In this document: piece after piece, positions 3,233-63,178 of the stretch
How the letters are laid out: each line of letters opens with the position of its first letter
Numbering within the stretch: position 1 is the stretch's first letter
DNA from: Eledone cirrhosa
Lineage: Eukaryota
DNA length: 64,000 nt
Assembly (NCBI GenBank): GCA_964016885.1
Contig: OZ024742.1
Coordinates: 235,042,001 to 235,106,000 of the forward strand
Reading direction: 5' to 3'
The notes under the pieces: generated by a model
The model's database searches: none
Told to the model about the DNA's origin: nothing
The model's input: the letters and a program-made list of their open reading frames with translations, nothing else
Made by a program: the position numbers and the translations under genes

Positions 3233-5069
3233 CATCATCATGATCATCATCATCACCGTTTTACGTCGGTTCTTCCACGCTAGCATGGGTTAGACGGGTT
3301 GTCCTGTTGTGGGCAGTGTCTGGTCGGCTGACCATGCCTTGCTCATACAGGAACTGATTTGGCTTGGTTTCTACAGCTGGATGCCCTTCCTAACACCAAC
3401 CTCATTTACAGTGAGTGCTGGGTACTTTTTTCCGTGGCACCTACACGTCCACTTTACAGTGTGGGCTGGGTGCTTTTTTTCCGTGGCACCTCCACGACCA
3501 GCTTGCGGTGGGGGGTGTGGGGGCATATTGTCTATATGCTTCAGCTTGTACCCATGGGAGGTCGGGTACTCTGTATTACTGCGTGACGCCAGAAGTCACG
3601 GTCGTGTGTCATTGTCTTTGAGAGGTGTAATTGGGTAAGGTCGGCTTTTATCACCTCATCCCAGGTCATCTTGGGTCTCCCCACTCCGCGGTTTCCATCA
3701 ACTTCTAGTGTTCTGCACCTTTTTATGCAGCTATCATCCTTCATATGCATCACATGTCCATACCAGCGCAACCGCCTCTCCTGCACACAGCATTTGATTC
3801 CTCTTATGCTCAGTCTCTCTCTCAATTCATTTATGCTTTGTCGTTCACGTATATTATTGTTACACATCCATCGGAGCATGCAGGCTTCGTTTCTCTCTAA
3901 TCTACGTAAGTCTTCCACCTTCAGCGCCCAGGTCTCGCTACCATGCAACATCGCTGTTCGGATACACGCATCATATAGTCTGCCTTTCATTCTGAGGGAG
4001 AAGCCTTTTGCAGCTAGCAGTGGTAGTAGTTCCCTAAACTTCTTCCATCCCGTTCTTACCCTAGTTATTGCACTTTCTGAACACCCACCTCCGTTGCTAA
4101 TTCGGTCACCTAGGTAGCAGAAGCTGTCAACTGTTTCTACAGGGCCCTCCCAGAGATTGGTGGTACTTGTTTCCTGTGGCTGTTTGCTGTTTGCTGTCTC
4201 AGCACAGCTGCTGCATGTGAATCCTACATTCTTAATTAAGCTTCCTGAGATCCCGCTACATCTCTTATGTATCCATTGTTTGCATTTGGGGAAGAGAATG
4301 GAGTTCCTACCTACACCTTTCCTACATACTGAGCAAGGCCATTTCCCTGAGGGGATCTGGGTTCTGTTTTCTCGTCTACTTACAAGGACCTTAGTCTTTG
4401 TCATGTTGACTTTGAGACCCTTTCTTTCTAGTCCCTGCTTCCAGGTTTGGAATTTATTCTCTAGTTCTACCATAGATTCAGCTATGAGTGCGAGGTCATC
4501 AGAATACAGGAGTTCCCATGGGCATCCGGTCTTAAACTCCTCCGTTATTGCCTGCAGGACTATGATGAACAGGAGAGGGCTAAGAACAGAGCCCTGGTGG
4601 ACACAACCTGTACGCTAAATTCCTCGCTATACTCATTGCTAATCCTAACTTTGCTGACTGCTCCCCTATACATGGCTTGTACCGCTTTCACAAGCCATTC
4701 ATCTACTCCTAGTTTTCTAAGAGCCCACCAGATTACAGCGCGTGGAACTCTGTCAAAGGCTTTCTCAAGGTCGACAAATGCCAAGTAGAGTGGCTTACTT
4801 TTAGCTAGGTACTTTTCCTGTAATTGCCTCACAAGGAAGAGGGCATCAGTGGTGCCTCTTCCTGGTACAAACCCAAATTGCATCTCGTCTATTTTCACCC
4901 GGTCCCTAATCAGCTGTGCTATAACTCTTTCTGTTACTTTCATGACCTGGTCCATCAACTTTATACCTCTATAGTTTCCTCTATCTAGTGCATCGCCTTT
5001 ACCTTTGTAGCAGTTGACAATGATGCTACTGCACCAATCTTTTGGTATGGCCCCTTCTAGTATTACCAT
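3233..5069 (-). mobile_element. RTE-clade LINE (subfamily B), 5'-truncated
   Basis: ORFs 4560-5174 and 3541-4473 contain RT motifs (QFGFVPGR, FVDLEKAFD, YSDD). A (CAT)n tail lies at about 3233-3255 and (TA)n tracts flank the copy. Confidence 0.92.
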
Positions 5070-5296: not shown

Positions 5297-6687
5297 GGGC
5301 TCTGTTCTTAGCCCCCTACTATTTATTATTGCCCTTCAGGCTATAACAGAGGAGTTCAAGACCGGCTGCCCATGGGAACTCCTATACGCAGATGATCTAA
5401 CGCTCATAGCTGAATCAATGACCGAACTAGAGAAGAAATTCCAAACGTGGAAGCACGGCCTAGAATCAAAAGGCCTTAAAATTAACCTGGCTAAGACTAA
5501 AGTTCTAGTTTGTAGGAAAGAAAATAAGGCAGCGGTCCCATCGGGGAAATGGCCATGCTCAGTGTGTAGGAAAGGCGTAGGTAGAAACTCCATTTTATGT
5601 CCCAAATGCAAAGTATGGGTGCATAAAAGATGTAGTGGGATCACAGGTAAGCTAACTAAGAACATAGATTTTACATGTGGCCGGTGCTCTGGTGCAATAA
5701 GTAGCAGCAAGCGCCCACAAAATACTAGCTCCTTCAACTGCGCAGAGGGTTCTATAGAAATAGTGGACAGCTTCCGTTATCTGGGTGACAAAATCAGCAG
5801 TGGGAGAGGGTGCTCTGAAAGTACAGTAGCTAGAGTCAGAACTGGATGGAAAAAGTTCAGAGAGCTTATACCACTATTAGCCGCTAGAGGGTTCTCCCTA
5901 AAAATGAAAGGCAGGTTATACGATGCCTGCATACGAACAGCAATGCTGCATGGCAGTGAGACCTGGGCATTGTGTGCAGAGGATATACGCAGACTAGAGA
6001 GGAACGAAGCTTGCATGCTCCGCTGGATGTGCAATAGTAATATACGTGAACGGCAAAGCATAAACGAACTAAGAAAAAAATTAGAAATAAGAGGGATCAG
6101 ATGTTGTTTACTCGAGAGAAGGCTACGTTGGTACGGTCACGTGATGCGCATGAAAGACGACAGCTGTATAACAAAGTGCAGGGCAATAAAGATAGACGGT
6201 AGCCACGGAGTAGGCAGACCCAGAAAAACATGGGACGAGCTGATAAATTCCGACCTCACACGCTTACACCTCTCCAAGACAATGTCACTGGACCGAGACC
6301 TTTGGCGGTACTCAGTAATAGAGAAGACCCGCCTTACCTAAATACAAAGTAAAAACCTACTACAGTCAGTAGGCATCTCTATCAAAACACACCCCCGTCC
6401 CACCACCTCCTCCACCCCACCCACACCACCCCTTTCAATGTAAAGTTATGTTGGTCCCACAACATCCAGGCCGAAACAAATGAGATCGTGTAGGTGTCAC
6501 GACAAAAAACACACAGTCCACGCTGTAAATGTGGCCGTGTAGGCAACACGGTAAAAACCTCCCAGCCCCACACTGTAAATGTGGTTGGTGTTAGGAAGGG
6601 CATCCAGCTGTAGAAAACCCGCCAGACAGTCCACGCTGTAATGTGGCCGTGTAGGCAACACGGTAAAAACCTCCCAGCCCCACACTG
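5297..6687 (+). mobile_element. RTE-clade LINE (family A), truncated at both ends
   Basis: YADD motif upstream of ORF 5418-6341; nearly identical to 57748-58772. The 3' UTR has an internal duplication and runs directly into a palindrome. Confidence 0.92.
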
Positions 6688-11099: not shown

Positions 11100-12150
11100 G
11101 TATCATCATTATCATTACCGTTTAACGTCTATTTTTCCATGCTTGCATGGGTTAGACAGGTCATTCACATTGGGAGACAAGTCTGGCTAGAGTTTGCTTC
11201 ACCGTACTTTATTCCGACATGGAATGTAAATTTGGCCAGGTTTTTTACAGCTGGATGCCCTTCCTAACACCAACCACATTTACAGTGTTGTACTGGATGG
11301 CAACATTATGAGAAGGGACAGGCAAGTTGGCCATGCCGACCCATCTCACAGCATAATCATAGTTTAGGAGCCCAGTACTGGATGGCAACCACCATGTTAT
11401 GTTGGGAGGTACATTCATTATCCGGGACGCTCTTTGTGTTTACAACCATTGTTCTATCATATTTTCTGGTGAGGATATTGTCGATTTGGCTGGTGTGCTC
11501 CCCTGAGCTATAGGTGATCAGTTGATTTGCTGGTTTCTTGAAGTATGTATTGCAGATAGTCATTTTGTTTACGTCGCAGAATTCCAGGAGCTTCAGTCCT
11601 TCCTCATTTCTTGTGGCAACCCCATGGAATCCCTCACTTAGTCTCCCAACATGTCTGTTGAAGTTGGCTGCAATAATGGTGAATTTGGTGTTTCTTGTTT
11701 GGGAAGTTGCACTTAATAGGGACTCGTAGAACAGGTCCTTTTGTTTGTAAGGCAGACCAGATTGGAGTGCGTAGACAGACATGATTGATACCGTTGTTCT
11801 GTTTAGGATGAACCTAAGTGAGATGATTCTGTCATTTATTCTATTTACTGTAATTACCTTGTCCAACCATTTTTCAACTAGCATGCTACCTACACCTCCA
11901 AGCTCACTGTCGTTACCTTTCCAGAATTTAAAGCATTGTTTTCTGGGCAATTCTCCTTTCCACTTCGTTTCTTGTATATAACATACATCAATTTTCTTAC
12001 GCTCGAGCATTTCCACAATCTCACCTGACCTACTTTTCAGCATCCCTACGTTGATGGCTGCAGCTCTGAAGTCACTGGTGGGGGATACATTTTTCCTGTT
12101 GGTGGATGATGTCTTGCTGCCGATTATTTGTGTCTGGGAAGAAAGGGAAG

Positions 12151-12181
<31 letters not shown>

Positions 12182-12240
12182 CTCCCGGACAGGTTGTTTG
12201 CATTGTGACCTTGTTTACTATGAATATTACTTACCAGTCA
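11100..12240 (-). mobile_element. Internally deleted RTE LINE: APE endonuclease part joined to the 3' tail
   Basis: ORF 11357-12043 has APE motifs (IQETKW, VYALQ, SQIDNIL). The family 3' tail (ggaagggcatccagctgta...gacgttaaac(TGA)n on the minus strand) lies at about 11100-11290. Confidence 0.8.
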
Positions 12241-16129: not shown

Positions 16130-16241
16130 ACACTAACATCTTACAAGAAAGTTGAAGCACAACTGAATATGAGTGAGGAATTTACAAATAGCTCCACTTA
16201 TCAGAGAAAGATTGGCTCTGCAGATGGAAGCAACATTCTTG
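16130..16241 (+). CDS. SLC1-family (EAAT-like) transporter, internal exon A (TM4b-4c loop to GxNxLG)
   Basis: tttctag acceptor and gtgagt donor. Encodes TLTSYKKVEAQLNMSEEFTNSSTYQRKIGSADGSNIL(G), matching the EAAT GMNVLG motif, with two N-glycosylation sequons (NMS, NSS). Phase-1 end joins exon B in frame. Confidence 0.85.
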
Positions 16242-25430: not shown

Positions 25431-28008
25431 GGATGGAGGCCAGTGAGTGAACGAATTATTACTGCCAGATTGAGCACAAGATTAGCCAAGGTGACCGTAG
25501 TGCAAGTCTACGCCCCGACTGAAGCTGCCTCAGATGAAGATAAGGACACCTTCTTTATCCAACTACAGGATGTCCTAGAGGAAACACCCAGGTCAGACAT
25601 TAGGCTGGTGATTGGTGACTTCAATGCCAAGCTAGATGGAGACAAGAGAGAAATGCATTCAGCCATTGGCCCCCACGGTTCAGCTGATTCCACCAATAAC
25701 AACGGGAAACGGTTGCTGTCAGTGAGCAGTATCAGCAACCTCTCCATCGGGAATACACTCTTCACCCATAGGCGGATTCACAAGATGACATGGACTTCCC
25801 CTGATGGCAACACCAGGAATGAGATTGATTATATCTGCATTGGCACGAGTGGCGTTCCTCTCTCTTGAATGTTCGCACCTACCGAGGGGCAGACGTTGGA
25901 TCTGACCATCATCTTGTGGTTGGAAAAATCCGCTTGAGGTTGAAGAAGAACAAAGCAAATAAGACCAAGAACTACAGCACGCACAGAACCGTGAAGACCA
26001 GTGGCAGATGTTTGCTCAGGCGGTCAGGGTGAGTGCTGATGTAGTTATTGGTAGAAGGGGGACCAACCGGGAACAGTGGATCAGCAGTACTTCATGGAAT
26101 CTCATTGACGAGAGGAAGGATGTTAAGAACAAAAGAGATCAAACCAAAACTCGACAGCAATGGAAGGAAGTGGACAAAGAGTACAGACGTCTTGACAAGG
26201 AAGTAAAGAAGAGCTGTCGAAAAGACAAGCACCAGTGGTTTGAAGATCGGGCTGCAGAAGCACAGGTGGCAGCAGATCAAAATGATTCCAAGACGCTGTA
26301 CCAGATCGTCAGAGAGCTAACTGGAGAATGAAGTGGAAGCAGTTTGCCAATCAAGAGCAAAGATGGTCGGATGCTTGCAGCCAGTGAAGAGCAGGCCCAG
26401 AGGTGGAACGAACACTTTCGTGAGGTCCTCAATCAGCCATCCCCCAACACAGTCTTCAAGCTTGACTGGGAGGAAGCGAGCTTCCGGCCGGATGTACGAC
26501 TAGACGACATCACAAGAGCTGAGGTGGCCAAGGACATCTGCTGCCAAAAGAATAACAAAGCGGCAGGGCTGGATGAGATTCCTGCAGAGCTTCTGAAGCA
26601 CGGCAAGGATGTAATAGAGGAGCAGTTAGCCCATTTATGCAATGTGATTTGGCAAGAAGAGGAGGTGCCGGAGGACTGGGGAAATGGAGTTATTGTGCCA
26701 CTACCGAAGAAAGGCTGTCTCAGCGACTGCAACAACTGAAGAGGGATCACGTTGCTATCAGTGCCAGGGAAGGTATTCTGCACAGTCATCCTGAACCGGC
26801 TGAGAGCAGAAGTAGATCGTCATCTTCGAGACGAACAGGCTGGCTTCCGCAGTGGAAGGTCTTGTTCAGAACAGATCTTCACTCTCCGAAATATCATTGA
26901 ACAATGTCGGGAGTTCCACAAGTCCCTTGTTGTCAACTACATTGACTTCAGGAAAGCTTTTGACAGTGTTCATCGGGAGTCATTGTGGAAGATTGTAAGA
27001 CTCTACGGTGTCCCAGAGAAATATATTAACATCTTCAGGTCGCTGTACCGACATTCCAGGTGCTGCGTTAGGACAAAGGACGGAAACACGGAAATGTTTG
27101 ACATCTTGACGGGTGTTCGACAAGGCTGCACCCTTTCACCTTTCCTTTTCCTCATTGTCATCGATTTCATCATGAAGAAGACAATGAGTGACTCTCGTTT
27201 TGGCATCAGTTGGGATGGAAGTAGATTAAGCGACCTGGACTTTGCCGATGACATCGCAGAGATAGGCCAATCCCGAGAAGACCTGCAAGAGATGACAAAC
27301 GTTCTAAATTACAATGCAGAGAAAGTTGGCCTGCGCATCAGTTGTGAAAAAACCAAGACCATGTCGACAGGTGACCCTCCAAATCCTCCCATCATGGTTG
27401 GTCAGCGTAACATTGAATGTGTAAACCACTTCCAATACATTGGCAGCAACATCTCTGACGATGGGGATGCTGAGGTGGATGTGCGCACAAGGCTGGGAAA
27501 AGCAGCGGCGGTCTTCCAGCGACTCCGTCCGTTATGGCCCAGGTGTTCCATCAGCAACGCTATCAAATTCCGTGTTTACATGTCCATTGTAGTACCAACA
27601 GCGATATATGCCTGTGAGACATGGAAGAGTACGGAAAGTGTATGTAACAAGCTTGATGTATTCCACCGTCGTTGCATTCAGACCATATTGAAAATTTCAT
27701 GGAGAGACCAAGTTAGCAATGAGGAAGTGATGAGGAGGTCAGGATTGGAAAGGAGACGGCGGTTCGCGGGCCACATCCTTCGTTTGCCGGCAGATCGACC
27801 TGCTCATATTGCCATGGATTGGGTACCAGAAGGTGGCAGGAGAGAACGGGGAAGACAACGAAAAACATGGCAGAGCACATTCAGGGAGGACCTGCGGGAG
27901 ATGGGAATTACCTGGAGAGGTGCTAGAAGGGCCGCCAGTGACATGATCAAGTGGAGGAAGCTCGTTGCCCAATGTTCTACAGGGGACTGAAGGAACTAAG
28001 ACTAAGAG
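25412..28008 (+). mobile_element. RTE-like LINE of a distinct, GC-richer family (APE + RT), 5'-truncated, with 12-bp TSD
   Basis: APE motifs (VQVYAPT, GDFNA, NEIDYI) and RT motifs (QAGFR, IDFRKAFD, GVRQG, FADD). The tail is gaactaagactaag. The TSD aatgactgatga occurs at 25275-25286 and 28009-28020. A few stops and deletions are present. Confidence 0.93.
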
Positions 28009-28250: not shown

Positions 28251-28377
28251 GACTTATTACTTTTAGTTTTCTATTTGGTGTGGCGGCTAGTTCTTTGAAA
28301 GAAAAAGGAGAACCTTTCCGAATGTTCTTTGAATCAACCAGTCTCATCACAGCTGAAATATTTAAGTATTTGCTCAA
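28251..28377 (+). CDS. SLC1-family transporter, exon B (TM4c-TM5)
   Basis: tcacag acceptor and gtaagt donor; 127 nt. Encodes (G)LITFSFLFGVAASSLKEKGEPFRMFFESTSLITAEIFKYLL(K), similar to EAAT GLVVFSIVFG...GEKG...FF. Confidence 0.9.
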
Positions 28378-30894: not shown

Positions 30895-31128
30895 AATAAC
30901 TCCAATTGGTGTTGCTAGTTTAATAATGGCAACCATAGCAAGCATTAAGAACATCAACACACTTTTCACCAGTCTTGGAATGTTCAGCCTCACAGTTTTT
31001 GCTGGACTGTTTTTCCATTTATTCATCCTTCAAACTATGGTATACATTATTATTTTCCGAAAAAACCCTTTTATTTTCCTCTTTACCTGCATACGACCAT
31101 ATATTTTGGCCTTTACTTTCACCAGCAG
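30895..31128 (+). CDS. SLC1-family transporter, exon C (TM5-TM6-HP1)
   Basis: ttgcag acceptor and gtaagt donor; 234 nt. Encodes ITPIGVASLIMATIASIKNINTLFTSLGMFSLTVFAGLFFHLFILQTMVYIIIFRKNPFIFLFTCIRPYILAFTFTS(S), with the PxG and RKNP motifs and the start of the HP1 serine tract. Confidence 0.93.
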
Positions 31129-35641: not shown

Positions 35642-35836
35642 TTCTGCTGCCTATGCTGAAATGGAATATTCTCTAGTGCAGAAAAATAAAGCAGATAAAC
35701 GAGTGGTTGGAGTATCACTGCCTCTAGTGGTGACATTAAATGCTGGTGGTAGTGCTGTATTTATTGTAACAGCAGCCATGTTCCTAACAAGCTACCAAGG
35801 TGTTCATTTGAATGCTGGCAATGTATCAGCAATTGT
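35642..35836 (+). CDS. SLC1-family transporter, exon D (HP1-TM7-HP2a)
   Basis: Polypyrimidine tract with tttcag acceptor and gtaagc donor; 195 nt. Encodes SAAYAEMEYSLVQKNKADKRVVGVSLPLVVTLNAGGSAVFIVTAAMFLTSYQGVHLNAGNVSAI(V), aligning to EAAT SSATLP...DKRV.RFVLP.GATINMDGTALYEA. Confidence 0.93.
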
Positions 35837-38814
35837 GTAAGCTTCTTGGTCTTTTGGTTTATTTTTTTAGTGAGGATGGTAGGGCAGTTTATCAAATATA
35901 GAAAGAATAATTCTTTCTAATATTGGCACAAGGCCAGCAATTTGGGAAAAGGGTAAAGTAGATTATGTCGACCCCCCACCCCCCACCCCCCAGTTTACCA
36001 ACTCCCAGAAGGATGAAAGGGAAAGTTAACCTAGGTGTATGATTTGAATGTAGAAAGTCACTATTAAATACCACCAAGCATTTTGTCTGATGCTCTACTG
36101 ATACTGCCAATCATAGAAAGAATAATGGTAACTAACAGAACCTGGGAAAATTTCACATTTTCATATTTCTATTTCACTCCACTGTTGAGGTTATTTAAAG
36201 TGTACACAAACTTGTTTCATTATGTTATATATTTCAAGGAGTAGTGGATTGGCAGAATCATTAGAGCATCAGACAAAATGCTTTGTAGTATTTACTTATG
36301 GCCCTTTATGTTCTGATTTCAAATCCCACCAAGGTCAGGCTTACCTTTCATCCTTTTGGAGTTGATAAAATAAAGCACCAGTTAAGTACTAGGGCCAATT
36401 TAATTGACTTGCCCCTTTCCTGAAATTGCTGGCCTCATGTCAATATTACAAAATTTGAAAGAATTATGTTAAATATTTTGATTATGTCTTCAATTTTGTT
36501 CCATAGTTAAGGTTGTTTAGCGTATAACACTGGAACACACAGAAGCCATGATATTTGTTTAAAATATAATCCCATTTGTTCATTTTCTTTCATTTTGATT
36601 TTATATCTTGTCCAAATGAAGGTGTCAGGCCTGGTGGTTAGGGTATTGAGTTTATGATCATAATATCATGAGTTCAATTCCTAAACCTGATGGCACATTG
36701 TGTCCTTGAGCAAATTCTGTTTACTCATCTGAAAATAAGTATCAGCTGTAGCTAGGGGTTAGCCATATGACAGACTGACATCCCATTTATGAAGGGGTCT
36801 TATACTCTCAGTTGCTTAACACTTTCATTACGATATCTCTAATGGACACTGCCTATAATTTTCAAATAATCAGAAATATGAAGGGATTTAGTAAAATAAC
36901 TAATGTGTTCATTATTAAGCTGGTGTGTGGAGCATAGCTATGGTTGAAGGTTTTTAGATAAATAATCTTTATTGCCTAGTTTCCATTGAAGAAAGGAAAA
37001 CGGTAAGATCAATACTTAAATCTCAAAACACACAGGGGGTATATATATTTATTCTCTCTCTCTTTCACTACAGACCTAAGTTTTATTCAGGAACCTAGCA
37101 ACCACATAGTCCCATACTCATTGAATTGGTTGTATCACAACAACTGTAACTATTGAATACTTAGTGTATTCAAGTTTTAAATAACAAATTCATTTCATTG
37201 CATAAAGTATATGTTGATAATGTTCTATTATAAACATGACAGTTTTCAAAGTATGCTATGACATGTTTACATAGTATATATTTCTTCCACCTTTGCAAGC
37301 AGGGAAAAGCAGATGTAAAATGATGATGATGATATAACATTTGCTCTTTGTTTTAATTGTTTCGGGTCAACAATTAAATAGTGTTTGTAGTTGCTGAATT
37401 AGAGGTATATATGAAAACATACAATATGCTTATGTAATAAGCTTGGGATAAGGTGATAAAGGCTGACTTTGCCCAATTGCACCTCTCAAAGGCAATACCA
37501 TAGGACCGGGATCTCTGGCATTACGCACTAATACAAAAGACCCGACTTCCCACAGGCACAGGCCGAAGATAAAGCATATGAATAATATGCACCACCCCAC
37601 CCCACCCACTCCCATACATGCATCCAGTGAAGCCTCCAGCCTACACTGTAAAGTGGCCGTGTTGCTGTCATGGCAAAAAACACCCAGTCCACACTATAAA
37701 GTGGTCATGTACAGCAAAAAGCACCCAGCCCACACTGTAAAGTGGTTGTGTAGGTGTCATGGCAAATAAAACATCTTTAACACTAAGCCAGGATAACAAA
37801 CAGAATCAGGACTTGCTATAACACTGGCTCTTCAATTCTGTTGGCATTACAAATATTTAGTAGTAAAGGAGTTTCTAACATATTCAATGTAGTAAATCAA
37901 TAAATTTTACTTAATTAAAATTACTTTCTTGGGGATGAAAATAATTATCTTAATTACTAACTCTAGTCAATATGGCAGGACAGACAACTCCAAAAATTTG
38001 ATTAACTAAACTTAAATATAGTTTCTAATTTAGGCACAAGGTAGCAAGCAATCTTTGAGGAGATGATGGGAAAGTCGATTGTATCAACTTTATAGGTACT
38101 ATTTTTTATCAAGGTTGACCTTGGCAGAACATAAATAGTTATAACTAAATGTTGCAAAGCAGCTTTTCAAAACTCTTAGGACTCTACCAATCCATCAACC
38201 TTAACTAAAGTTAAATATAAATTGCAATTGGAAATGAGTCTGTTTTGATGTTTTGATGTTATTAGATCTCATCAAGAAAGCATAGTCTTCCCATAACTAC
38301 AAGGTCTTAGAATGACTGGAGAAATATACCTTTTTCATGGATAAACACTAAGTGGTGTAATAACTTTTTCCTACATTGAATTTTTCTTAATCTACATTTG
38401 GTGGGCTAATGCTTGATCTGTTGAGTTATGTACACATTTTCTAAGTACTAGACCTGTTTCATAAGGCATGTCAGTAGAAAAAACATATACCAGCTGACAA
38501 GCAGATCTAGAAAACAAAAATATATCCCCCATGGAGAGCCATGTTAGTAGCTATTGAGTGAAGAATCCCTACAGAGTGCAAAACATGGAGAAACATGGAT
38601 TCTTATTTGTATCAAGGAACACCTGTTGCTAGAATATTCAGAAACACTGAAACAGAAGTTGAACTGTTGTATTGTCAAAGACTTGATTTTTGGTTTCACT
38701 TGTAGAAGATATTATTAGTGGTAGGTGGAAATCAACTCAACCAAAAAGTAATGTAGAAGATATAAAAAAAATGTTAATTAGCTCAAGTAGGAATTGTATT
38801 CACATCACAAATAT

Positions 38815-39410
38815 TCATCATCTTTATCATTTTATGATTGTTTTTCAATGCTTGCATAGGCTGATGGGTCTTTCCCAATACAGCATACCCACACTTGTTA
38901 CATTCCATTGTCATGTCCTTCGCAAGCTTCAGCAATTTGAGATCAGTTCTCACCACCTCTGCCCATGTCTTCCTTGATCTTCTTCTATTGCATTTTCCTT
39001 CCACTAAGATTTCTTGTAACTACTTTACTCAGCAATCATCATCCATATACATCACATGCTTTTATTAGCACAGGCTTCTCTCATCCAAACATTTAATTAT
39101 GCTTATACTCGTTTTTTTTTGTTTTTTTCTCAGGTCATTTATGCTTCATCAATCATGCACATTAACATTACATATCCAACAGAACATGCTCTTTTCATTT
39201 CTCTCAAGCCTCTACACTCATTTCTCATGTCTCACTACCTTGTAGCACACATCACATGCAGGCAACATACAGCTGGCCTTTCGTTTATAGACAGTCCTTT
39301 TGTAAATAGAGTTAGTAACTCCCTAACCCTTTTCCATCCTGTTCATATTCTAGCTTCTAAGCCCTCAGGGCAACCTCTCCCATGCTAATTAAGTCACCTA
39401 GGTAGCAGAT
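38815..39410 (-). mobile_element. Degenerate RTE LINE 3' fragment
   Basis: Minus strand contains CYLGD, GWKRVREL and RSRKTWAEVV remnants. Confidence 0.7.
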
Positions 39411-40173
39411 TGTGCAAACTGACAAAACCCCACAGAACTAACCTTGAGTTAAACAACATCATACACAATATATTTAATCTAGCTTTCTCATATGGTGAAA
39501 AGCCCTTATCCCTTTCATAACTGTATTTTTAATTCAATGTGTTAGTTTAATTAATTAACGAAAAATTTGGAGGGATTTACTAGAATTATTGTTTCATTAA
39601 GATGGCATTTCTAATAACAAAATGTTCTTAGATAAAATTTGTTGCACAGTTTTAATATAAATAGAATTCCTTTAAAGTGGGTGTTTTGTTTCCTAGAGAA
39701 AGATGTGGTTTGTAGGCAGGTTGGTATCAAAATGAATTTCCTTGAGAGTTTATGATTCGTTGGCTACCCTCAACCTGAATTAGTTGCCCTTCAATGCTAT
39801 TATCCAAAAGTGGTACAATACTGCTTGCAGACAGTTCATGAAGTCACAAGGAAGAGCTGGGTGTCTGTGGGAGCCAATGACAAACAAACTGTCCTGAAAA
39901 AGAATTGGCAAGGACCTTACCAAAAGTAATGTTTCTCCTTGACATTCCATATCTCACCAGAACCATCACATTCTCAACATACTGATTGCAGGAATGGATT
40001 AGCTATTAAACAAAATAAACATGTATTGGAGATCAAAGGAAAAGGGGCACCATTTTATTCAAATTAAATGTAATTGTCATTCCCCACCAAATGCTGTTGT
40101 TTTTTTCAATCTGGCCCAGATTGAGTGATTAATGTATCCAATCATTTGAAGCTGTTTTCATTTATTTTAATAG

Positions 40174-40308
40174 ACTTCTTACAGCTATTACTTCAATGGC
40201 TTTACCTGGTATACCAAGCTCAAGTATCGTCACTTTGATTTTATTGTTCACTTCCATGAATATTTCTCCAAAACCTATTGCCATGCTTTATGCTCTGGAA
40301 TGGATTTT
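40174..40308 (+). CDS. SLC1-family transporter, exon E (HP2-TM8a)
   Basis: taatag acceptor and gtaagt donor; 135 nt, phase 2-2. Encodes LLTAITSMALPGIPSSSIVTLILLFTSMNISPKPIAMLYALEWI(L), similar to EAAT TAASIGAAGIPQAGLVTM...IAVDWFL. Confidence 0.93.
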
Positions 40309-40509
40309 GTAAGTATTTTCATCTTCTCATTTTATCAAAACGATTTTTGAAAGTGACAGCATTAACACAGAATATATTAAAACTCCCTTGTTCTCTTTCC
40401 AGCCCTAGATTACTTTATTTTTAAAATCAATTTTGTTGGGGTAATTTCGTTTCAAGTAATAATCAATTTCTTAAACTATTAAGTAACAGGATTTTGTTAT
40501 TAATTTCTT

Positions 40510-41200
40510 ATAATAATAATAATGAAAATATTGTGTACAGTGCTCTGGTGCACTATAACTCATCAAAGGTGCATGTATAGTACATAGAATAAAGTACAAA
40601 TGTCAGGAAAGTGAACAGTGTATGAGTCATGATATACACACAGATACATGCATGCGTGTGTATGGAGAGGGATTATCAGATGTAGTGTTGCCAAATTTCC
40701 GGAAGCATGGAGGTTTTAAAAGATGCAGTGTCTCGGCAGCTAACAACTGATGCAAGTAGTTTGTTCCATGCTTCAACAACTCTGAGCGTGAAAAAATCTT
40801 TCCAAAAGTCATGGGAGCTGTGCTGTTTTCTGACTTTGTAGACACATGGAATTCAAAAAAGGTGCTCAGGGTTATTGTTGGCAAGATGGTTAATAATTTT
40901 GTGGGTGTTTACCAAGTCAGTTGCCAGATGTTGGAGCTTCAATGTATCCATTCCCAGGGAAGCAAGGCGTTCAAAGTATGGTAGATGCTTGATGGAGGGT
41001 ATTCACTTGGTTGCACATCTCTAAACTGTTTCCAGAAGGTCAATGTTCTGAGCAGGATAGGGGTTCCAGACTGGTGATGCAAATTCTAAGTGTGGCCACA
41101 CCATAGCTATATACAGATTTAAATAGATGGCTGGAGAGCAGCTGTCAAAGGTCTTACTGAGTGATGCCAAGACACCCTCGGCCTTCTTGACAATTTTATA
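40510..41200 (-). mobile_element. CR1-like LINE 3' fragment
   Basis: Minus strand has PHLEFASPVWNPY..QNIDLLETV and LPYFERL remnants and an (ATT)n tail. The same tail occurs at about 52770-52957 and 59825-59873. Confidence 0.75.
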
Positions 41201-43698
41201 TTGATAAAGAATTACATGACCTTTTCATTGCTTAGTCACTAATTATACTGAATTTTGCCTTAACAAGGTTAATGGGGTATTAAAGCAAATACAGTGATAG
41301 CTGTAACAAATACATTTCCTGTTTCTGAATCTCACCTTTAAAACAATTTACTTTACTTCCCAGTTTTTACAGCAGAAAGACGAAACTATAGATGCCAACT
41401 TTTTTTTTGTAATGCACCTATTCTATGTGTTAAAAGGGTGTTTTGATTTTGAGATTTTTCCAGTATACATAAAGGTTACTTTTGAAATGGTCAGTTAGCT
41501 AGATTAAGTTCTTTCCAGACCCTAAGTACTTAAAAGTTTGAGGGGAAATGACAAATACATTTAATTTGAATAAAATGGTGCCCCTTTTCCTTTGATGCCC
41601 TAAGCATGTATTTGTTCTGCTTAATGGTTAATCCATCCCTACAATCGGTATGTTGACAATGTGAAGGTTCTGGTGAGATATGGAATGTCAAGGACGCACA
41701 TTACCTTTGTTTAGACAAGATTTTCTGCCCTGTTAGCTAGTGCTTTTTGTAAAGCTTAGTAGGAAGAGGAAGGGCAAGGCTAGTGGAAGGAAGTTATTCT
41801 AAGATCAGAGACTGGATTTGGATGCTTACAATAGACTGTACTCCACTAAAAGCATCCATGGACCAGATGGTGGTGTTACACTGGTCATTGCTTCTGAAGT
41901 AATTTGTATAAATGGCCTTCTGTTGATAGCTGTCAGTTCATTGCAAAGTTAACCTCCAATTATTGCTGGTATTCATTGTTTCAGCTGAATAGATTGGAGC
42001 AGTGTGAAATGAAGTGCAGTCTGGGGATCAAACCCATGCCATTATTATCATGAGCCAAACACCCCAAAACTCCCAGGTTTCGCACAAACTCACAAACAAC
42101 CAATTACACCAAATCCCCACAAAGAGAAAGAAATCCTTTATTTTCCCCATTCACTCAAGTGACATCACTGCTCCTCAACCCCAGCTTGCATCTGCACCAG
42201 AGAATAACTGTTCAATTGCTGTCATTTCCATTGTGGTAGACTGTTGTTTATTTCTTCCCACAAATTGGCCTTCTGAAATTATTATTTTCATTATTAATAA
42301 TACGTGGCTTCAAATCCAGCTAGGGTTAACTTTGCTTTTCGTTTTTCCAGGGTCAATAAAATAAAGTACCAGTTAAGTACTGGGTTAATATAATTAACTC
42401 CATCCCCATCACCACTACTACTGTTACTATCACTATCACTACTACTAATTATAAAAAAGTGCTGGAATAGCATAAATGGTAAGCCATCAGCAAAATGCCT
42501 TGTAGTATATAGTTTTGTCACCTTATTTATCTGAGTTTAAATCCTACCAGCATTAGTTTTGTCCTATTCAACTTCACTGGACTATTAAAATAAATATCAT
42601 GTACTAGAGTTGATTAAACATTCAATATTCTTCCAGAATGTGTGATTTTCTGTCTATATTAGGAAAACTTTGCCTTTCATCCTTACGGGGTCGATAAAAT
42701 AAAGTACCAGTAATACACTGAGTAATTGCTGGCCTTGTGCCAAAAGTAGAAACAATTATTATTATAAGATGGGGGTGCAGTTGATTGGTACTGAATTGCT
42801 TTGCAGCATTCAGCTATGTCTCATTATGTTCTGAATAGAAATCCTACAGAGTTTAATTTTATCTTTCATCCTTTCAAGGTTGATAAAATAAAGTACCACT
42901 ACCTTCTGGTTTCTAATCCTACTATGGTTGATTTTACTATTTATTCCTTTTGGTCCAATCTCAGTTGATTTAACTTTTAACATCCTATACTGCATAAAAC
43001 CACATTAGCATGATATTCTTGAAAAATATAAAACAGTACTATGATTGCATCTCATTAAAAATTATAGTCTTTACTCTAATACTGCAAATTTTCACAACAA
43101 TCTGTCCACTACTAAAGATTCTATAAACATTTAAATTAACAATTCTATTTTTAAATATTTTTTGCCTCATCATTGCTGGGTGTTAAGAGTTAAATGTATT
43201 TCTAATCCTTAGTATTGTTGGATCTCTGTTGATCCCGACAATGACTGTTTGTCTTTTGAACAACAGAACACCCTGCTCATGATATTAACATGTAAGTGGC
43301 TGAGTTTTCCACAGATATGTGTACCCTTAATGTAGTTCTCAGGGCAATTCGGTGTGACACAGGGTATGACAAGATGGACCATTTTGAATTATAGGTACAA
43401 CTCACTTTTTCCATCTAAGTGGACTGAAGCAACATGAAATAAAGTATCTTGCTCAAAGACACAATGTGCTACTCAGGCTGGGAATCAAACTCATAATCTT
43501 ATGATTGTGAGCCCAGCAACCTAACTTCTAAGTCATCCACCTTCACGGAAATTACTTAATATTGGTTTCAAAATATTTATTTTCTCTACACTATATGTAT
43601 GTATTGAGAGTCTGTCTCATAAAACATGACTTTTATTGTATCATTACAACTTCAAATTAATATTTTGACGTATATTTTTATATTTGTCTTCCTTTCAG

Positions 43699-43930
43699 AG
43701 ACCGACTAAGAACTGGCAACAATGCACTTAGTCACATCTTAGGATGCTTAATTGTTGATCATTTTATGAAGTTCTCAATGACTACGGAACATAAAAAACA
43801 CAAAGGGGACGAAAACTGTGAAGAACTGAAAATTATGACATCAACTGTAACTGCAAGTCCTGAAGAATCAGCTCTACTAGAAGAGAAAAACAGTTTGTTT
43901 CTAAATGGCAACACCACAATGAGTGATTAA
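43699..43930 (+). CDS. SLC1-family transporter, terminal coding exon F (TM8b and cytoplasmic tail, stop TAA)
   Basis: ctttcag acceptor. Encodes DRLRTGNNALSHILGCLIVDHFMKFSMTTEHKKHKGDENCEELKIMTSTVTASPEESALLEEKNSLFLNGNTTMSD*, containing the DRLRT TM8 signature. Confidence 0.93.
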
Positions 43931-56038: not shown

Positions 56039-59000
56039 CTTGTTCTAAATAGAACTACTGTGACAGTAATATATGCATACGCGCCCCAATCCGGACTGCC
56101 TTAGCGCTATAAAAGGCAGATTCTATGAGACACTGATGCTCACTACCTCCCAAATAACCGACAGTGACTATATAATTATTGCTGGCGACCTAAATGGTCA
56201 CGTTGGACAACATTGTGATGGCTATGACGGAATCCACGGAGGCTATGGGTTTGGTACTAGAAATGAGGAAGGCTCCAGAATCCTGGAATTCTGTGATGCA
56301 AATAACCTAACTATCTGTAACACTAACTTCAAAAAACGAGACAATCACTTGATCACCTACAGATCAGGGGAACATACCAGCCAGGTAGATTATATCCTTA
56401 CCAGAAGACGTGACAGAGTGTCTGTTGTAAACACTAAATCCCTCTCCCATGAAGAATGCACCTCCCAACATAGACTGATAATTAGCGACCTCATAGTCAG
56501 GACGAGACGTACTAGACAGCAGAAGAGGACTATCCTCAGGAGAAAAATATGAAAGCTAAAGGACCCCACAGCCAGAAATAAATTTAAAAGCATATTACTT
56601 GATGCTTTCGACAGTAAGGAAGAGCAATTAGAGTCGTAAAGTATAGAGGAACAGTGGAAATTCCTGAAAGCAAACCTGCTGATGGCGGCAGACGAATTCT
56701 GTGGCTAGAGCAGCCCTGTAGGCAGGAGGAGAGTAACATGGTGGTGGAACAGTAAGGTGGAGGAGTCAATTAAGGCCAAAAAGCAGGCTTGGAAAGTATG
56801 GCGGGATGGGGGAAGTAGAGAAGACTATCAAGTGGCCAGGAGGGAATCTAGGAGACAAGTGTACTTCGCAAGAAGGGAAGCAGAGGAAAGAAAGTTCAAG
56901 CATGTTCTACAACGCGAGGACCAAAAACGTGAGGTGTTCAGGATTGCTAGGCAATGTGTCAAGGATATTGTCGGGGAGAAGTGTGTACTTAATGATGATG
57001 GCGTACTTGCCATCACTGACACTGATAAGAAGGTAGCTTGGAAGTGTCACTACGAAAGGCTACTAAATGAGGAGAATAAATGGGAGAAAGACAGTCTCCC
57101 CCACATCGACCCAATAGAGGGACCAGCAGTGTTAGTCGAGGGTAGTATAATAAGTAAGGCAATCAAGGATATGAAGACGGGTAAGGCGGCTGGGCCTTCG
57201 GAAATAGTTGCTGAGATGCTGAAGGCATCTGGCACGGTGGGACACACCATGGTCACCCGGATAGTTAACCAAGTCGTACAGAATGGGGTTGTTCCGAAGG
57301 ACTGGCATAGCAGCATCATCATTAACTGTTACAAGGGTAAAGGAGATGCCCTAGATAGGAGTAACTATAGAGGCATTAAATTAATCGACCAGGTCATGAA
57401 GGTCTCGGAAAAAGTAATAGCGCAACTAATCAGAGAGAGAATTGATCTAGATGAAATGCAGTTCGGGTTTGTGTCAGGCAAAAGTACCACAGACGCTCTT
57501 TTCATTGTACGACAACTACAGGAGAAGTACCTAGCTAAAAGTAAACCCCTATACTTAGCTTTTGTCGACTTGGAGAAAGCCTTCAACAGAGTCCCCCGTT
57601 CCATTATCTGGTGGGCTCTTAGAAAAGTAGGTGTTGATGAATGGCTTGTGAGAGCCATACAAGCCATGTATAAAGAAACAGTCAGCAAGGTTAGAATTAA
57701 CAACGAATATAGTGAAGAGTTTAGCGTAAAAGTTGGTGTTCATCAGCGCTCTGTTCTTAGCCCCCTCCTATTTATTATTGCCCTTCAGGCTATAACAGTG
57801 GAGTTCAAGACTGGCTGCCCATGGGAACTCCTATACGCAGATGATCTAACGCTCATAGCTGAATCAATGACCGAGCTAGAGAAGAAATTCCAAACATGGA
57901 AGCACGGCCTAGAATCAAAAGGCCTTAAAATTAACCTGGCTAAGACTAAAGTTCTAGTTTGTAGGAAAGAAAATAAGGCGGCGGTCCCTTCCGGGAAATG
58001 GCCATGCTCAGTGTGTAGGAAAGGCGTAGGTAGAAACTCCATTTTATGTCCCAAATGCAAAGTATGGGTGCATAAAAGATGTAGTGGGATCACAGGTAAG
58101 CTAACTAAGAACATAGATTTTACATGTGGCTGGTGCTCTGGTGCAATAAGTAGCAGCAAGTGCCCACAAAATACTAGCTCTTTCAATTGCGCAGAGGGTT
58201 CTACAGAAATAGTGGACAGCTTCCGTTACCTGGGTGACAAAATCAGCAGTTGGGGAGGGTGCTCTGAAAGTACAGTAGCTAGAGTCAGAACTGGATGGAA
58301 AAAGTTCAGAGAGCTTATACCACTATTAGCCGCTAAAGGGTTCTCCCTAAAAATGAAAGGCAGGTTGTATGATGCCTGCATACGAACAGCAATGTTGCAT
58401 GGCAGTGAAACCTGGGCATTGTGTGCAGAGGATATACGCAGACTAGAGAGGAACGAAGCTTGCATGCTCCGCTGGATGTGTAATAGTAATATATGAGAAC
58501 TAAGGGAAAAATTAGAAATAAGAGGGATCAGATGTTGTTTACTCGAGAGAAGGCTACGTTGGTATGGTCACGTGATGCGCATGAAAGACGACAGCTGTAT
58601 AAAAAAGTGCAGGGCAATAAAGATAGACGGTAGCCACGGAGTAGGCAGACCCAGAAAAACCTGGGACGACCTGATAAATTCCGACCTCACACACTTACAC
58701 CTCTCCAAGACAATGTCACTGGACCGAGATCTTTGGCGGTACTCAGTAATAGAGAAGACCCGCCTTACCTAAATACAAAGTAAAACCTACTACAGTCAGT
58801 AGGCACCTAACAAAATACACCCCCCACCCCATCCACACCGCCCCTTTCAATGTAAAGTTATGTTGGTGCCACAACATCCAGGCCGAAACAAATGAGATTG
58901 TGTAGGTGTCACGACAAAAAAACACACAGTCCACGCTGTAATGTGGCCGTGTAGGTAACACGGTAAAAACCTTCCAGTCCCACACTGTAAATGTGGTTGG

Positions 59001-59894: not shown

Positions 59895-62800
59895 ATCATC
59901 ATCATCTTCGTTTAACGTCCATCTTCCACGCTAGCATGGGTTAGACGGGAGTTGTCCCACTTGAGGCAAGATTGGTCAGGTGACCGTGTCTCTCTCATAT
60001 AGGACTGTCTAGTGGGTTTTCTACGGCTGGATGCCCTTCCTAACACCAACCACGTTTACAGTGTATAACTGGGAGGTTTTTACCGCGTTACCTACACGGC
60101 CACATTACAGCGTGGACTGTGTGTTTTTTTCTCGTGACACCTACACGATCTCGATCTCATTATCTCATTTATTTGGACTGGATGTTGTGGTACCAACTTT
60201 ACAGAGAAAGGGTGGTGGGAGTGGGAGTGGGGGTGGGAGGATAGTGGTTGGGGTGTATATTTGGTTAAGAGATGCCTACTGACTGTAGGTTTCGCTTTGT
60301 ATATAGGCAAGGCGGGTCTTCTGTATTACTGTGTAGTGCCAAAGATCTCGGTCCAGCGACATTGTCTTAGAGAGGTGCAAGTGTGTAAGGTCAGAATTTA
60401 TCAGGTCGTCCCAGGTTTTTCTGGGTCTGCCTACTCCATAACTACCATCAATTTTGATCACCCTGCACTTTTTTATACAGCTGTCGTCTTTCATGCGCAT
60501 CACGTGGCCATACCAACGTAGTCTTCTCTCAAGTAAACAGCATCTGATCCCTCTTATTCCTAATTTCTCACTTAGTTCATTTATGCTTTGCCGTTCACAT
60601 ATATTACTATTACACATCCAACGGAGCATGCATGCTTCATTCCTTTCCAGTCTGCGCAGGTCCTCTGCACGTAATGCCTATGTCTCACTGCCATGTAGCA
60701 TTGCTGTTCGTATGCAGGCATCATACAATCTGCCTTTCATTTTTAGAGAGAAATCTTTTGTGGCCAACAGCGGTATAAGCTCTCTGAACTTTTTCAATCC
60801 CGTTCTGACTCTGGCTACTGTACTTTCAGAACACGCTCCACCACTGCTGATTTTGTCACCCAGGTAACGGAAAGTGTCCACTATTTCTATAGAACCATCT
60901 GGGCAATAGAAGGAGCTAGTATCCTGTGGACACTTGCTACTAAGCATCAGCCACATATAAAGTCTACTTTCTTAGATAGTTTACCTGTGATCCCACTACA
61001 TCTTTTATGTACTCATAGTTTGCATTTGGGACATAAAATGGAATTTATGCCTACTCCTTTCCTACACACTGAGCATGACCATTTCCCTGAGGGCACCTGC
61101 ACCCTGTTTTCCTTTCTACAAACTAGAACTTTAGTCTTAGACAAGTTAACTTTAAGGCCTTTTGATTCTAGGCTATGCTTCCTTGTTTGGAATTTCTTCT
61201 CTAGTTCAGCCATAGATTCAGCTATGAGAGTTAGATCATCTGCGTATAGGAGTTCCCATGGGTAGCCGGTCTTAAACTCCTCTGTTATAGCCTGAAGGGC
61301 AATAATAAATAGTAGGGGGCTAGGGACAGAGCCTTGATGAACACCAACTTTTACACTAAATTCTTAACTATATTCATTGTTAATTCTTTAATTCTAACCT
61401 TACTGACTGTTTCTTTATACATGGCTTGTATAGCTCTCACAAGCCATTCATCTACACCTACTTTTCTAAGAGCCCACCAGATAATGGAGCGGGAGACTCT
61501 GTCAAAGGCTTTCTCTAGGTCTACAAAAGCTAAGTAGAGGGGTTTACTTTTAGCTAGGAACTTCTCCTGTAGTTGTCGTACAAGGAAATGAGCGTCTGTG
61601 GTACTTTTACCTGACACAAACCCAAACTGCATTTCATCTAGATTAATTTGCTCTCTGATTAGTTGTGCTATAACTCTTTCTGTGACCTTCATGACCTGGT
61701 CAACTAACTTAATGCCTCTATAGTTTCCCCTATCTAGAGCATCCCCTTTACCCTTGTAGCAGTTAATGATGATGCTGTCTTTTGGTATGACCCCATTCTG
61801 TATTACTTGGTTAACTATATGGGTGACCATAGTATGTCCCACCATTCCAGATGCTTTCAACATCTCAGCAACTATCTCCGAAGGTCCAGCTGCCTTGCCT
61901 GTCTTCATATCTTTGATTGCCTTACTTATTATACTACCTTTAACTTGCACCGCTGGTCCTTCTATTGGATCGATTTGGGGCAGACTATCTTTTTCCCATT
62001 TATTCTCCTCATTTAATAGTCTCTCGTAGTGACACTTCCAGGCTATCTTCTTATCAGTATCAGTGAGCGCAAGTACACCGTTATCATTACGGACACACTT
62101 CTCCCCCAAAATATCACGGTTTTCCTTGACACATTGTCTAGTAATCCTGAACACCTCACATTTTTGGTCCTCACGTTGTAGAACATGCTTGAACTTTCTA
62201 TCCTCTGCTTCCCTTTTTGCAAGGTACACTTGTCTCCTAGCTTCTCTCCTGGCCACTTGATAGTACTCTCTACTTCCCCCATCCTGCCATACTTTCCAAG
62301 CCTGCGTTTTGGCCTTGATTGTCTCCTCCACCTTACTGTTCCACCACCAAGTTATTCTCCTCCTGCCAATAGTCTGCTCCAGCCACAGATTTCATCCGTT
62401 GCTTTCAGCAGGTTCACTTTCAAGAACTCCCACTGTTCCTCTATATTGCACGTCTCTAATTGCTCTTCCTTATTGTCAAATGCATCAAGAAATAAGCTTT
62501 TAAATTTGTCACTGGCTATGGGGTCCTTCAACTTCCACATTCTTCTCCTCAAGGTAGGCCTCCTCTGTCGTCGAGTACGTCTATTCCTAACTATGAGGTC
62601 ACTAACTGCTAGGATATGTTGGGAGGTGTATTCTTCACGGGGGAGGGATTTAGTGTTTACAACAGACGCTTTGTCACATCTTCTAGTAAGGATATAATCT
62701 ATCTGGCTGGCGTGTTCCCCTGATCTATAGGTGATCAAGTGGTTTTCTCGTTTTTTGAAGTTTGTGTTACTGATAGTTAGGTTATTAGCGTCACAGAATT

Positions 62801-63178
62801 CCAGGATTCTGAAGCCCTCCTCATTTCTATTTCCAACCCCATAGCCTCCATGGATTCCACCATAGCCATCACTATGTTGTCCAACATGACCATTTAGATC
62901 GCCAGCAATAATTAAGTAGTCGCTGTCGGTTATTTGGGAGGTAGTGTGCATTAGCGTCTCATAGAATCTGTCATTTATAACGTCAGGTAGACCAGATTGG
63001 GGTGCATAAGCAGATATTATTGTCACAGTAGTTCTATTTAGAACTAGTCTTATTTTAATTATTCTGTCATTCACTCTATTTACGTCAATTACCATATCTA
63101 CCCATTTTTCAGCTAACATAATTCCTACTCCACCCAGTCCGTTGTCATTTCACACCCAGAAAAGTTTATAGCATCGTT
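59895..63178 (-). mobile_element. RTE LINE family A-related, long 5'-truncated copy
   Basis: ORFs 62352-63119 and 61351-62331 plus downstream fragments; (CAT)n tail; convergent with 56039-59143. Confidence 0.95.

Follow-up and report, generated by a model that had tools for sequence, protein, structure and literature searches.

Can a transporter of the SLC1 family keep the residues that recognize an acidic substrate and lose those that couple its movement to Na+, H+, and K+? The question is raised by a 64,000-nucleotide stretch of the genome of the octopod Eledone cirrhosa (contig OZ024742.1, here C3; hereafter the window), in which a first-pass annotation had described such a gene. With its splice boundaries fixed, the window gene is an intact SLC1 gene of 11 coding exons and a 518-residue open frame. 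The exons were located by tblastn with the Octopus bimaculoides orthologue (P0008) before the boundaries were set; exons 6-11 lie inside the window and exons 1-5 upstream, up to 65 kb away (Table 1). The six window exons are open and flanked by AG acceptors and GT donors, as the annotation had stated, and its count of six omitted the five upstream coding exons. Every acceptor of the 11-exon gene is AG, with GT at nine donors and GC at the first. This GC donor of intron 1, at C3:234977074, lies upstream of the window and is a genomic reading outside the five-exon contig match described below.

Three of the exons translate to the motifs claimed earlier for transmembrane segments 7 and 8 (TM7 and TM8). 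TM7, TLNAGGSAVFIV, is encoded in exon 35642-35836, its T starting at 35733 and its N codon at 35739; TM8 (LEWIL, then DRLRTGNNALSH) crosses the 40308/43699 exon junction. The SSS motif of hairpin 1 (HP1) was likewise correctly called as retained, and is split across the 31128/35642 junction. GltPh residue numbers follow mainly PMC12668577 and EAAT3 numbers mainly PMC3737229, and were mapped through the alignment made here. In this numbering the gene carries M311A, D312G, T314S, Y317F, E374I, G306V, G404S, and D405H, with TM3 residues Y89/T92/S93 replaced by V/S/N. Retained are N310 and the HP1 SSS; position 314 still has a hydroxyl residue (Ser) and position 390 an acidic one (Glu). All four residues associated with acidic substrates (D394, R397, T398, and N401) are present as D443, R446, T447, and N450. 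The annotation had therefore read D312>G, M311>A, D405>H, and YE>FI, together with the four conserved positions, accurately. The Na+-site set of PMC12668577 ([S/T]92-93, N310, [M/S]311, [D/E]312, [D/E]405) is matched at two of six positions (S92 and N310), the prokaryotic H+ signature from the same source (hydrophobic 92, L311, N405) at none of three (S, A, H), and the TM7 glutamate of coupled EAATs is replaced by I373. These defining residues set the gene apart from canonical EAATs, from ASCTs, and from H+ symporters of the prokaryotic type. From the sequence, F317 would be expected to preserve the cation-pi interaction with R397 reported for Y317 in PMC12668577. The annotation also held that adenosine-to-inosine (A-to-I) editing cannot produce Asp from GGT or CAC, which is correct for those codons; by codon logic, however, such editing could change H454 to Arg, or N365 or N450 (both AAT) to Asp.

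Table 1. Positions of the coding exons, diagnostic residues, and neighbouring elements (window coordinates, except where prefixed C3; the window is C3:235042001-235106000)
Feature	Position	Strand	Basis or remark
Coding exon 1	C3:234976878-234977073		upstream of window
Coding exon 2	C3:235024842-235024916		upstream of window
Coding exon 3	C3:235029564-235029686		upstream of window
Coding exon 4	C3:235031613-235031697		upstream of window
Coding exon 5	C3:235040056-235040098		upstream of window
Coding exon 6 (TM3-4 loop region)	16130..16241	+	tblastn with P0008, 82% identity; AG/GT sites, open frame
Coding exon 7 (TM4c-TM5)	28251..28377	+	tblastn, splice sites; in spliced contig, 0 differences
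Coding exon 8 (TM5 end, TM6, HP1a, start of SSS tip)	30895..31128	+	PF00375 match; spliced contig
Coding exon 9 (HP1b, TM7; NAG for NMD, FI for YE)	35642..35836	+	PF00375, 30.5 bits, above cut-off; contig
Coding exon 10 (hairpin 2, tip SMALPGIPSSS; TM8 start with E439)	40174..40308	+	splice sites, spliced contig
Coding exon 11 (TM8, C-terminal tail, stop; D443, R446, T447, N450, S453, H454)	43699..43930	+	contig continues to 44003 as 3' untranslated region
N365-A366-G367	35739..35747	+	orthologue aligned to EAAT1; in-genome canonical paralogue
N365 (AAT)	35739	+	GltPh N310; kept
A366 (GCT)	35742	+	GltPh M311; Na2 Met lost
G367 (GGT)	35745	+	GltPh D312; Na3 carboxylate lost
F372-I373	35760..35765	+	equivalent of TM7 YE pair
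F372 (TTT)	35760	+	Y of YE pair (Y317F)
I373 (ATT)	35763	+	E of YE pair (EAAT3 E374, EAAC1 E373); proton/K+ glutamate lost
D443 (GAC)	43700	+	GltPh D394; kept
R446 (AGA)	43709	+	GltPh R397; kept
T447 (ACT)	43712	+	GltPh T398; kept
N450 (AAT)	43721	+	GltPh N401; kept
S453 (AGT)	43730	+	GltPh G404 (G404S)
H454 (CAC)	43733..43735	+	GltPh D405, Na1/K1 site
LINE-type (long interspersed nuclear element) reverse transcriptase frames, PHD finger directly C-terminal to the reverse transcriptase domain in the same frame	5298-6341; 56709-58496; 3541-4614	+; +; -	three copies in 64 kb
Further LINE reverse transcriptase/endonuclease fragments	26740-27990; 61351-62391; 11357-12214; 62352-63149	+; -; -; -	introns and downstream

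Is this a working gene or the remnant of one? A 2087-nucleotide contig in one public run (X1, type not on record) consists in part of five abutting pieces on exons 7-11 plus 73 nucleotides of 3' untranslated region, and over 997 nucleotides it matches the genome with 0 differing letters and 0 gaps. It is a spliced mRNA of the SLC1 gene, which is thus spliced, on the evidence of one joined contig from one study; the longest listed pieces of three larger runs held no comparable exon join. Its other 1090 nucleotides would leave room for the upstream exons (634 nucleotides) and 5' untranslated region. A retrocopy was considered as the source of the contig and rejected, as a search of the species' own genome turned up no intronless copy. 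Because assembled contigs drop rare variants, the perfect match limits what can be said about editing.

RefSeq orthologues occur in O. bimaculoides (XP_052825489 and isoforms), O. sinensis (XP_029656485, partial), and Argonauta hians, under automatic names of the EAAT1-like, EAAT3-like, or ASCT-like type. NAGGS and FI are found in all three, and the TM8 SH in both full-length proteins; the T398 equivalent is Ser in O. bimaculoides. Several O. bimaculoides isoforms in RefSeq (P0003, P0004-P0007) swap or skip the TM8 or TM5-6 exons, which would remove the substrate site. No squid, cuttlefish, or nautilus orthologue was seen in the library clustered at 90% or named among the 50% representatives, in searches of limited sensitivity (one missed Argonauta) and libraries in which close relatives may be collapsed.

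A pseudogene, decaying duplicate, or assembly error, the outcome that a missing transcript or changes private to this assembly would have indicated, is now very improbable and largely refuted. Two observations fit decay: a long stem branch to the octopod trio (about 1.0-1.1 changes per site), and only 73% identity between two octopods (381/520 positions to O. bimaculoides; 335/525 to Argonauta). Set against them are the open frame, the spliced transcript, and a distribution of identity examined region by region, in place of a ratio of nonsynonymous to synonymous rates, together with a neutral simulation. The TM7 core is identical at 18/19 positions in O. bimaculoides and 17/19 in Argonauta and the TM8 core at 20/23 and 21/23, whereas the tails match P0008 least well (6/25 and 31/55). 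When neutral evolution to 73% identity was simulated with substitutions only, the frame was still open in 7 of 2000 runs. Chance or assembly error can be dismissed because three further octopod species have the TM7 changes, two of them also have the TM8 His (the O. sinensis record being partial), and the spliced contig contains both. The earlier description of a functional-looking, noncanonical SLC1 gene, with substrate residues kept and Na1, Na3, K+, and H+ residues lost, is borne out to this extent.

Family membership rests on domain content and predicted fold. P0008 scores 246 bits against PF00375 over profile positions 6-386 of 387, a full-length SDF domain, and exon 9 of the window gene alone exceeds the cut-off. 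An AlphaFold model of P0008, built from a 90-sequence alignment, reached a predicted local distance difference test (pLDDT) score of 86 and a predicted template modelling (pTM) score of 0.85. The model places helix breaks at 326-328, 361-362, and 403-408, with HP1, hairpin 2 (HP2), and the TM7 break predicted to be preserved. Foldseek returned human EAAT2, EAAT3, and ASCT2 as the best PDB matches (target TM-score ~0.87 for all three; E ~1e-23 for EAAT2/3), and a search of the ESM Atlas gave generic EAAT clusters only. By domain and predicted fold the gene is a member of SLC1.

How far beyond octopods do these changes extend? An alignment of the gene and its library matches (165 rows, redundant O. 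bimaculoides isoforms excluded) drew in one case on the best 150 of 6374 matches, so that the sample is biased toward the query. Eighteen rows with poor coverage or with gaps at diagnostic positions were removed, leaving 147 proteins for the tree, with branch supports given as FastTree or Shimodaira-Hasegawa-like approximate likelihood ratio test (SH-aLRT) values only. The window gene and 55 others form one group (FastTree 0.998; SH-aLRT 99-100 in subsets of 54 and 39 rows). Organism names are available for 25 of these 55 and span six phyla, covering octopods, gastropods, bivalves, a nemertean, an annelid, tapeworms, a fluke, rotifers, and two hemichordates. The suggestion of a mollusc subfamily was accordingly too narrow; within this sample, only D312G is octopod-specific, Gly at 312 occurring in 3 of 56 members, the three octopods.

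Across the clade the pattern of residues is consistent. D405 is found in none of the 56 members and in 85 of the 91 other proteins, E374 in none versus 60/91, G306 in 4/56 versus 86/91, and the full Na+ set in none versus 60/91, while D394 and R397 occur together in 55/56 members (69/91 others) and N401 in 48/56 (89/91 others). Pro occupies 353 in 52 members, and a basic residue stands at 310, 311, or 405 in 55/56 versus 9/91. D312 is kept in 36 members and absent from 20, and His 405 has the same counts; the tree implies 8 changes at the former and 9 at the latter. These counts argue that substrate recognition was held while the cation sites were rebuilt throughout the clade, of which the Eledone gene is, by its residues, one of the more stripped members. 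One subgroup (P0030, P0031, P0034-P0036, P0039, P0041, P0045, and others; the named members are bivalves) lacks N310, D312, and His at 405 alike, mostly carries Arg at 311, and keeps D394 and R397.

In trees with two bacterial outgroups, the clade groups with five arthropod EAAT2-type proteins (SH-aLRT 96 and 99), and arthropod EAAT2 is the likely sister group. This kinship is a lead only, because an approximately unbiased (AU) test does not reject the rival tree joining the arthropod proteins to canonical EAATs (p=0.325), long branches are present, and Drosophila is outside the tree. RefSeq gives the Bemisia proteins of the arthropod group the name EAAT2, and in the Pieris protein (P0066) the motifs in TM7, HP2, and TM8 agree, by eye, with those of a Chilo gene called EAAT2 in the supplement of PMC4501067. 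Drosophila dEAAT2 favours aspartate and taurine over glutamate (PMC3737229).

What, then, might such a protein do? We lean, at somewhat less than even confidence, toward a K+-independent exchanger or downhill facilitator of a small acidic amino acid that has little or no Na+ coupling and places His454 in the Na1 pocket; the substrate is likely aspartate, perhaps taurine, moved by an elevator mechanism. Canonical EAATs operate at a stoichiometry of 3 Na+/H+/K+, a cycle that is implausible here because the gene lacks all three coupling carboxylates. With E374 and D405 gone, there would be no K+ step and no E374-proton step, and with D312 gone, TM3 reading V/S/N, and G306 replaced, Na3 and Na1 would be unable to hold Na+ as in GltPh. 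In LeuT-fold carriers a basic side chain can stand in for a Na+ ion. The His side chain, or in other members Lys/Arg at 310/311, may similarly fill the cation pocket and leave the high-affinity substrate site pre-formed, as AncInt, a reconstructed bacterial ancestor and cation-independent aspartate exchanger, manages without Na+ (Reddy et al. 2025, PMC12668577). Loss of the three carboxylates together with this precedent is why the exchanger or facilitator is favoured; the proposed substrate follows from the kept residues and the likely arthropod EAAT2 kinship. Concentrative glutamate clearance would fall to the canonical EAAT encoded on C2. In EAAC1, K+ is proposed to bind at two sites, formed by D454 and E373 (PMC7537348), and D367 takes part in the binding of Na+ by the empty transporter (PMC2151618); the single mutants E373Q and D454N lose steady-state uptake and keep exchange (PMC2151618; PMC7537348).

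Several points weigh against the exchanger or facilitator. Na2 is built mostly from backbone carbonyls and could survive. Exchange by EAAC1 D454N is still Na+-dependent, with a Michaelis constant of 28 vs 13 mM, and the activity of the D367 mutant was too low for a K+-binding test (both PMC7537348), so that losing D312 disables an otherwise canonical carrier. In arthropod EAAT2, unlike the window gene, the D405 equivalent is present, as is NMD or a variant of it (NMN, NLN). The Na+ sites are still in place in AncInt, which is for this reason an analogy rather than a homologous change. Finally, an apparent trade-off between His405 loss and a basic residue at 310/311 (19/20 versus 22/36, Fisher p=0.01) was gone in 7 independent pairs (sign test p=1) and was set aside.

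Some of the same observations suit a carrier that still needs one Na+, bound at Na2 under HP2 or at a site rebuilt from N365 and S114/N115 of TM3; it would resemble ASCT or insect EAAT2 in being a symporter of low stoichiometry or an exchanger dependent on Na+. We regard this as unlikely, if well worth keeping in mind: the equivalents of N310, T308, and S349 are kept, EAAC1 D454N retains Na+-dependent exchange, 36 clade members still have D312, and the likely arthropod sister keeps D405, but M311, D312, and D405 are all missing together in the window gene, the HP2 tip is rebuilt around Pro 353, and no clade member has the full Na+ set.

The frequency of His at 405 in several phyla brings up a proton-coupled symporter in which H454 would be the titratable site in place of Na1, the more so as prokaryotic SLC1 proteins that switched to H+ coupling also altered residue 405 (PMC12668577). 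This appears improbable, since the prokaryotic H+ signature is absent, 20 clade members do without the His, and the animal proton acceptor E374 is missing from all 56.

Retention of substrate residues alongside loss of coupling residues would also fit a protein that hardly transports and acts chiefly as an anion channel, ligand-gated or leak, or as a sensor of amino acids. The position of EAAT1 R388 is Gly in octopods, R388D/E holding the EAAT1 channel constitutively open (as cited in PMC5472439), and the S103 equivalent is Asn. That effect is cited for acidic substitutions, however, not Gly; S103 lies outside the pore according to PMC5472439; and in the predicted fold both hairpins and the broken TM7 are intact. 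R388 is moreover kept in 36/56 clade members, so a channel state is not the clade's design, and we rate this possibility as quite improbable. These modes are not fully exclusive, since an exchanger could, for instance, also leak chloride, and a small share of the weight reflects this overlap.

Taken at the level of the clade, the same residues allow a broader proposal, put forward more tentatively than the exchanger or facilitator: animals may have a third, undescribed SLC1 class, at least as old as the protostome-deuterostome split, comprising Na+/K+-independent aspartate/taurine carriers in which side chains (His405, often Lys/Arg 310/311) replace Na+, and octopods would have gone furthest among the His-bearing members through D312 loss. 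To our knowledge, the characterized animal SLC1 transporters are all Na+-dependent. If side chains do replace Na+, these would be natural animal SLC1 proteins with built-in cations. Taurine and D-aspartate are relevant to mollusc osmolyte handling and cephalopod neurochemistry, on which the gene would bear if either is the substrate. The gain and loss of ion coupling in the SLC1 fold, an active question, has so far been approached via reconstructed bacterial ancestors (PMC12668577). In the clade, dozens of proteins from living animals form a stepwise series, with YE lost in arthropod EAAT2, D405 lost in the whole clade, and D312 lost in octopods and several others, which makes the ion-coupling question directly testable. 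Clade genes are already in databases under automatic names, and SLC1 is a known family; anyone who takes such genes from molluscs, flatworms, rotifers, or hemichordates as markers of glia or glutamate clearance is probably misled by the automatic 'EAAT-like' labels. A full-text literature search, confined largely to open-access papers, found no description of the clade, although an earlier one may exist elsewhere; PMC5055395 and PMC9815951 contributed nothing further. A 2026 preprint on metazoan glutamate-system phylogenomics (10.64898/2026.09.05.749567) treats SLC1A as one group, with no residue analysis in its main text.

A PF00375 search of the Eledone genome returned at least three SLC1 loci: the window gene, C2:131.67-131.93 Mb, and C3:104.0 Mb. 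The second, used here as the in-genome reference, is a canonical EAAT spanning ~260 kb (C2:131671753-131933900) with NMD, YE, and D405 intact; it reads TINMDGTALYEA, SIGAAGVPQAG, and DRFRTMINVEGD. The third (C3:104008098-104059300) presents a near-mirror pattern, with TM7 IININAGVLYKS and a putative TM8 exon NRVGVTVNTIAD, in which D394, R397, and T398 look lost and D405 kept; the match of this putative exon is weak (E=0.29), and the paralogue sits on a long branch within the canonical group. The introns and surroundings of the window gene hold the reverse transcriptase frames listed in Table 1.

Among known systems, the vertebrate EAAT1-5 (SLC1A1/2/3/6/7) and GltPh/GltTk share PF00375 with the gene over its whole length and provide its best PDB sequence and fold matches; the EAATs and GltPh also share the HP1 SSS, D394, R397, T398, and N401. 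The gene's clade is nonetheless separate from canonical EAATs in trees, its TM3 has V/S/N for Y/T/T, and the HP2 tip reads SMALPGIPSSS rather than the SIGAAGVPQAG of the canonical paralogue. Arthropod EAAT2 resembles the gene in having F plus a hydrophobic residue for YE and an xVPS-type HP2. ASCT1/2 (SLC1A4/5) work in exchanger mode and keep NMD and the Na+ sites. They lack E374, as the gene does, and have no K+ requirement (PMC7537348), and two octopod orthologues bear the RefSeq name 'neutral amino acid transporter A-like'; the other features are reversed, in that the ASCTs have a small neutral residue in place of the R397 equivalent (PMC3737229), whereas the gene keeps R446 (Arg in 55/56 of the clade) and has lost the NMD and Na+ sites. 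The prokaryotic H+-coupled GltP/GltT proteins use hydrophobic 92, L311, and N405, none of which occurs in the gene, and are of independent origin; together with AncInt, they provide a precedent in the SLC1 fold for cation-independent exchange followed by loss of the Na+ residues (PMC12668577).

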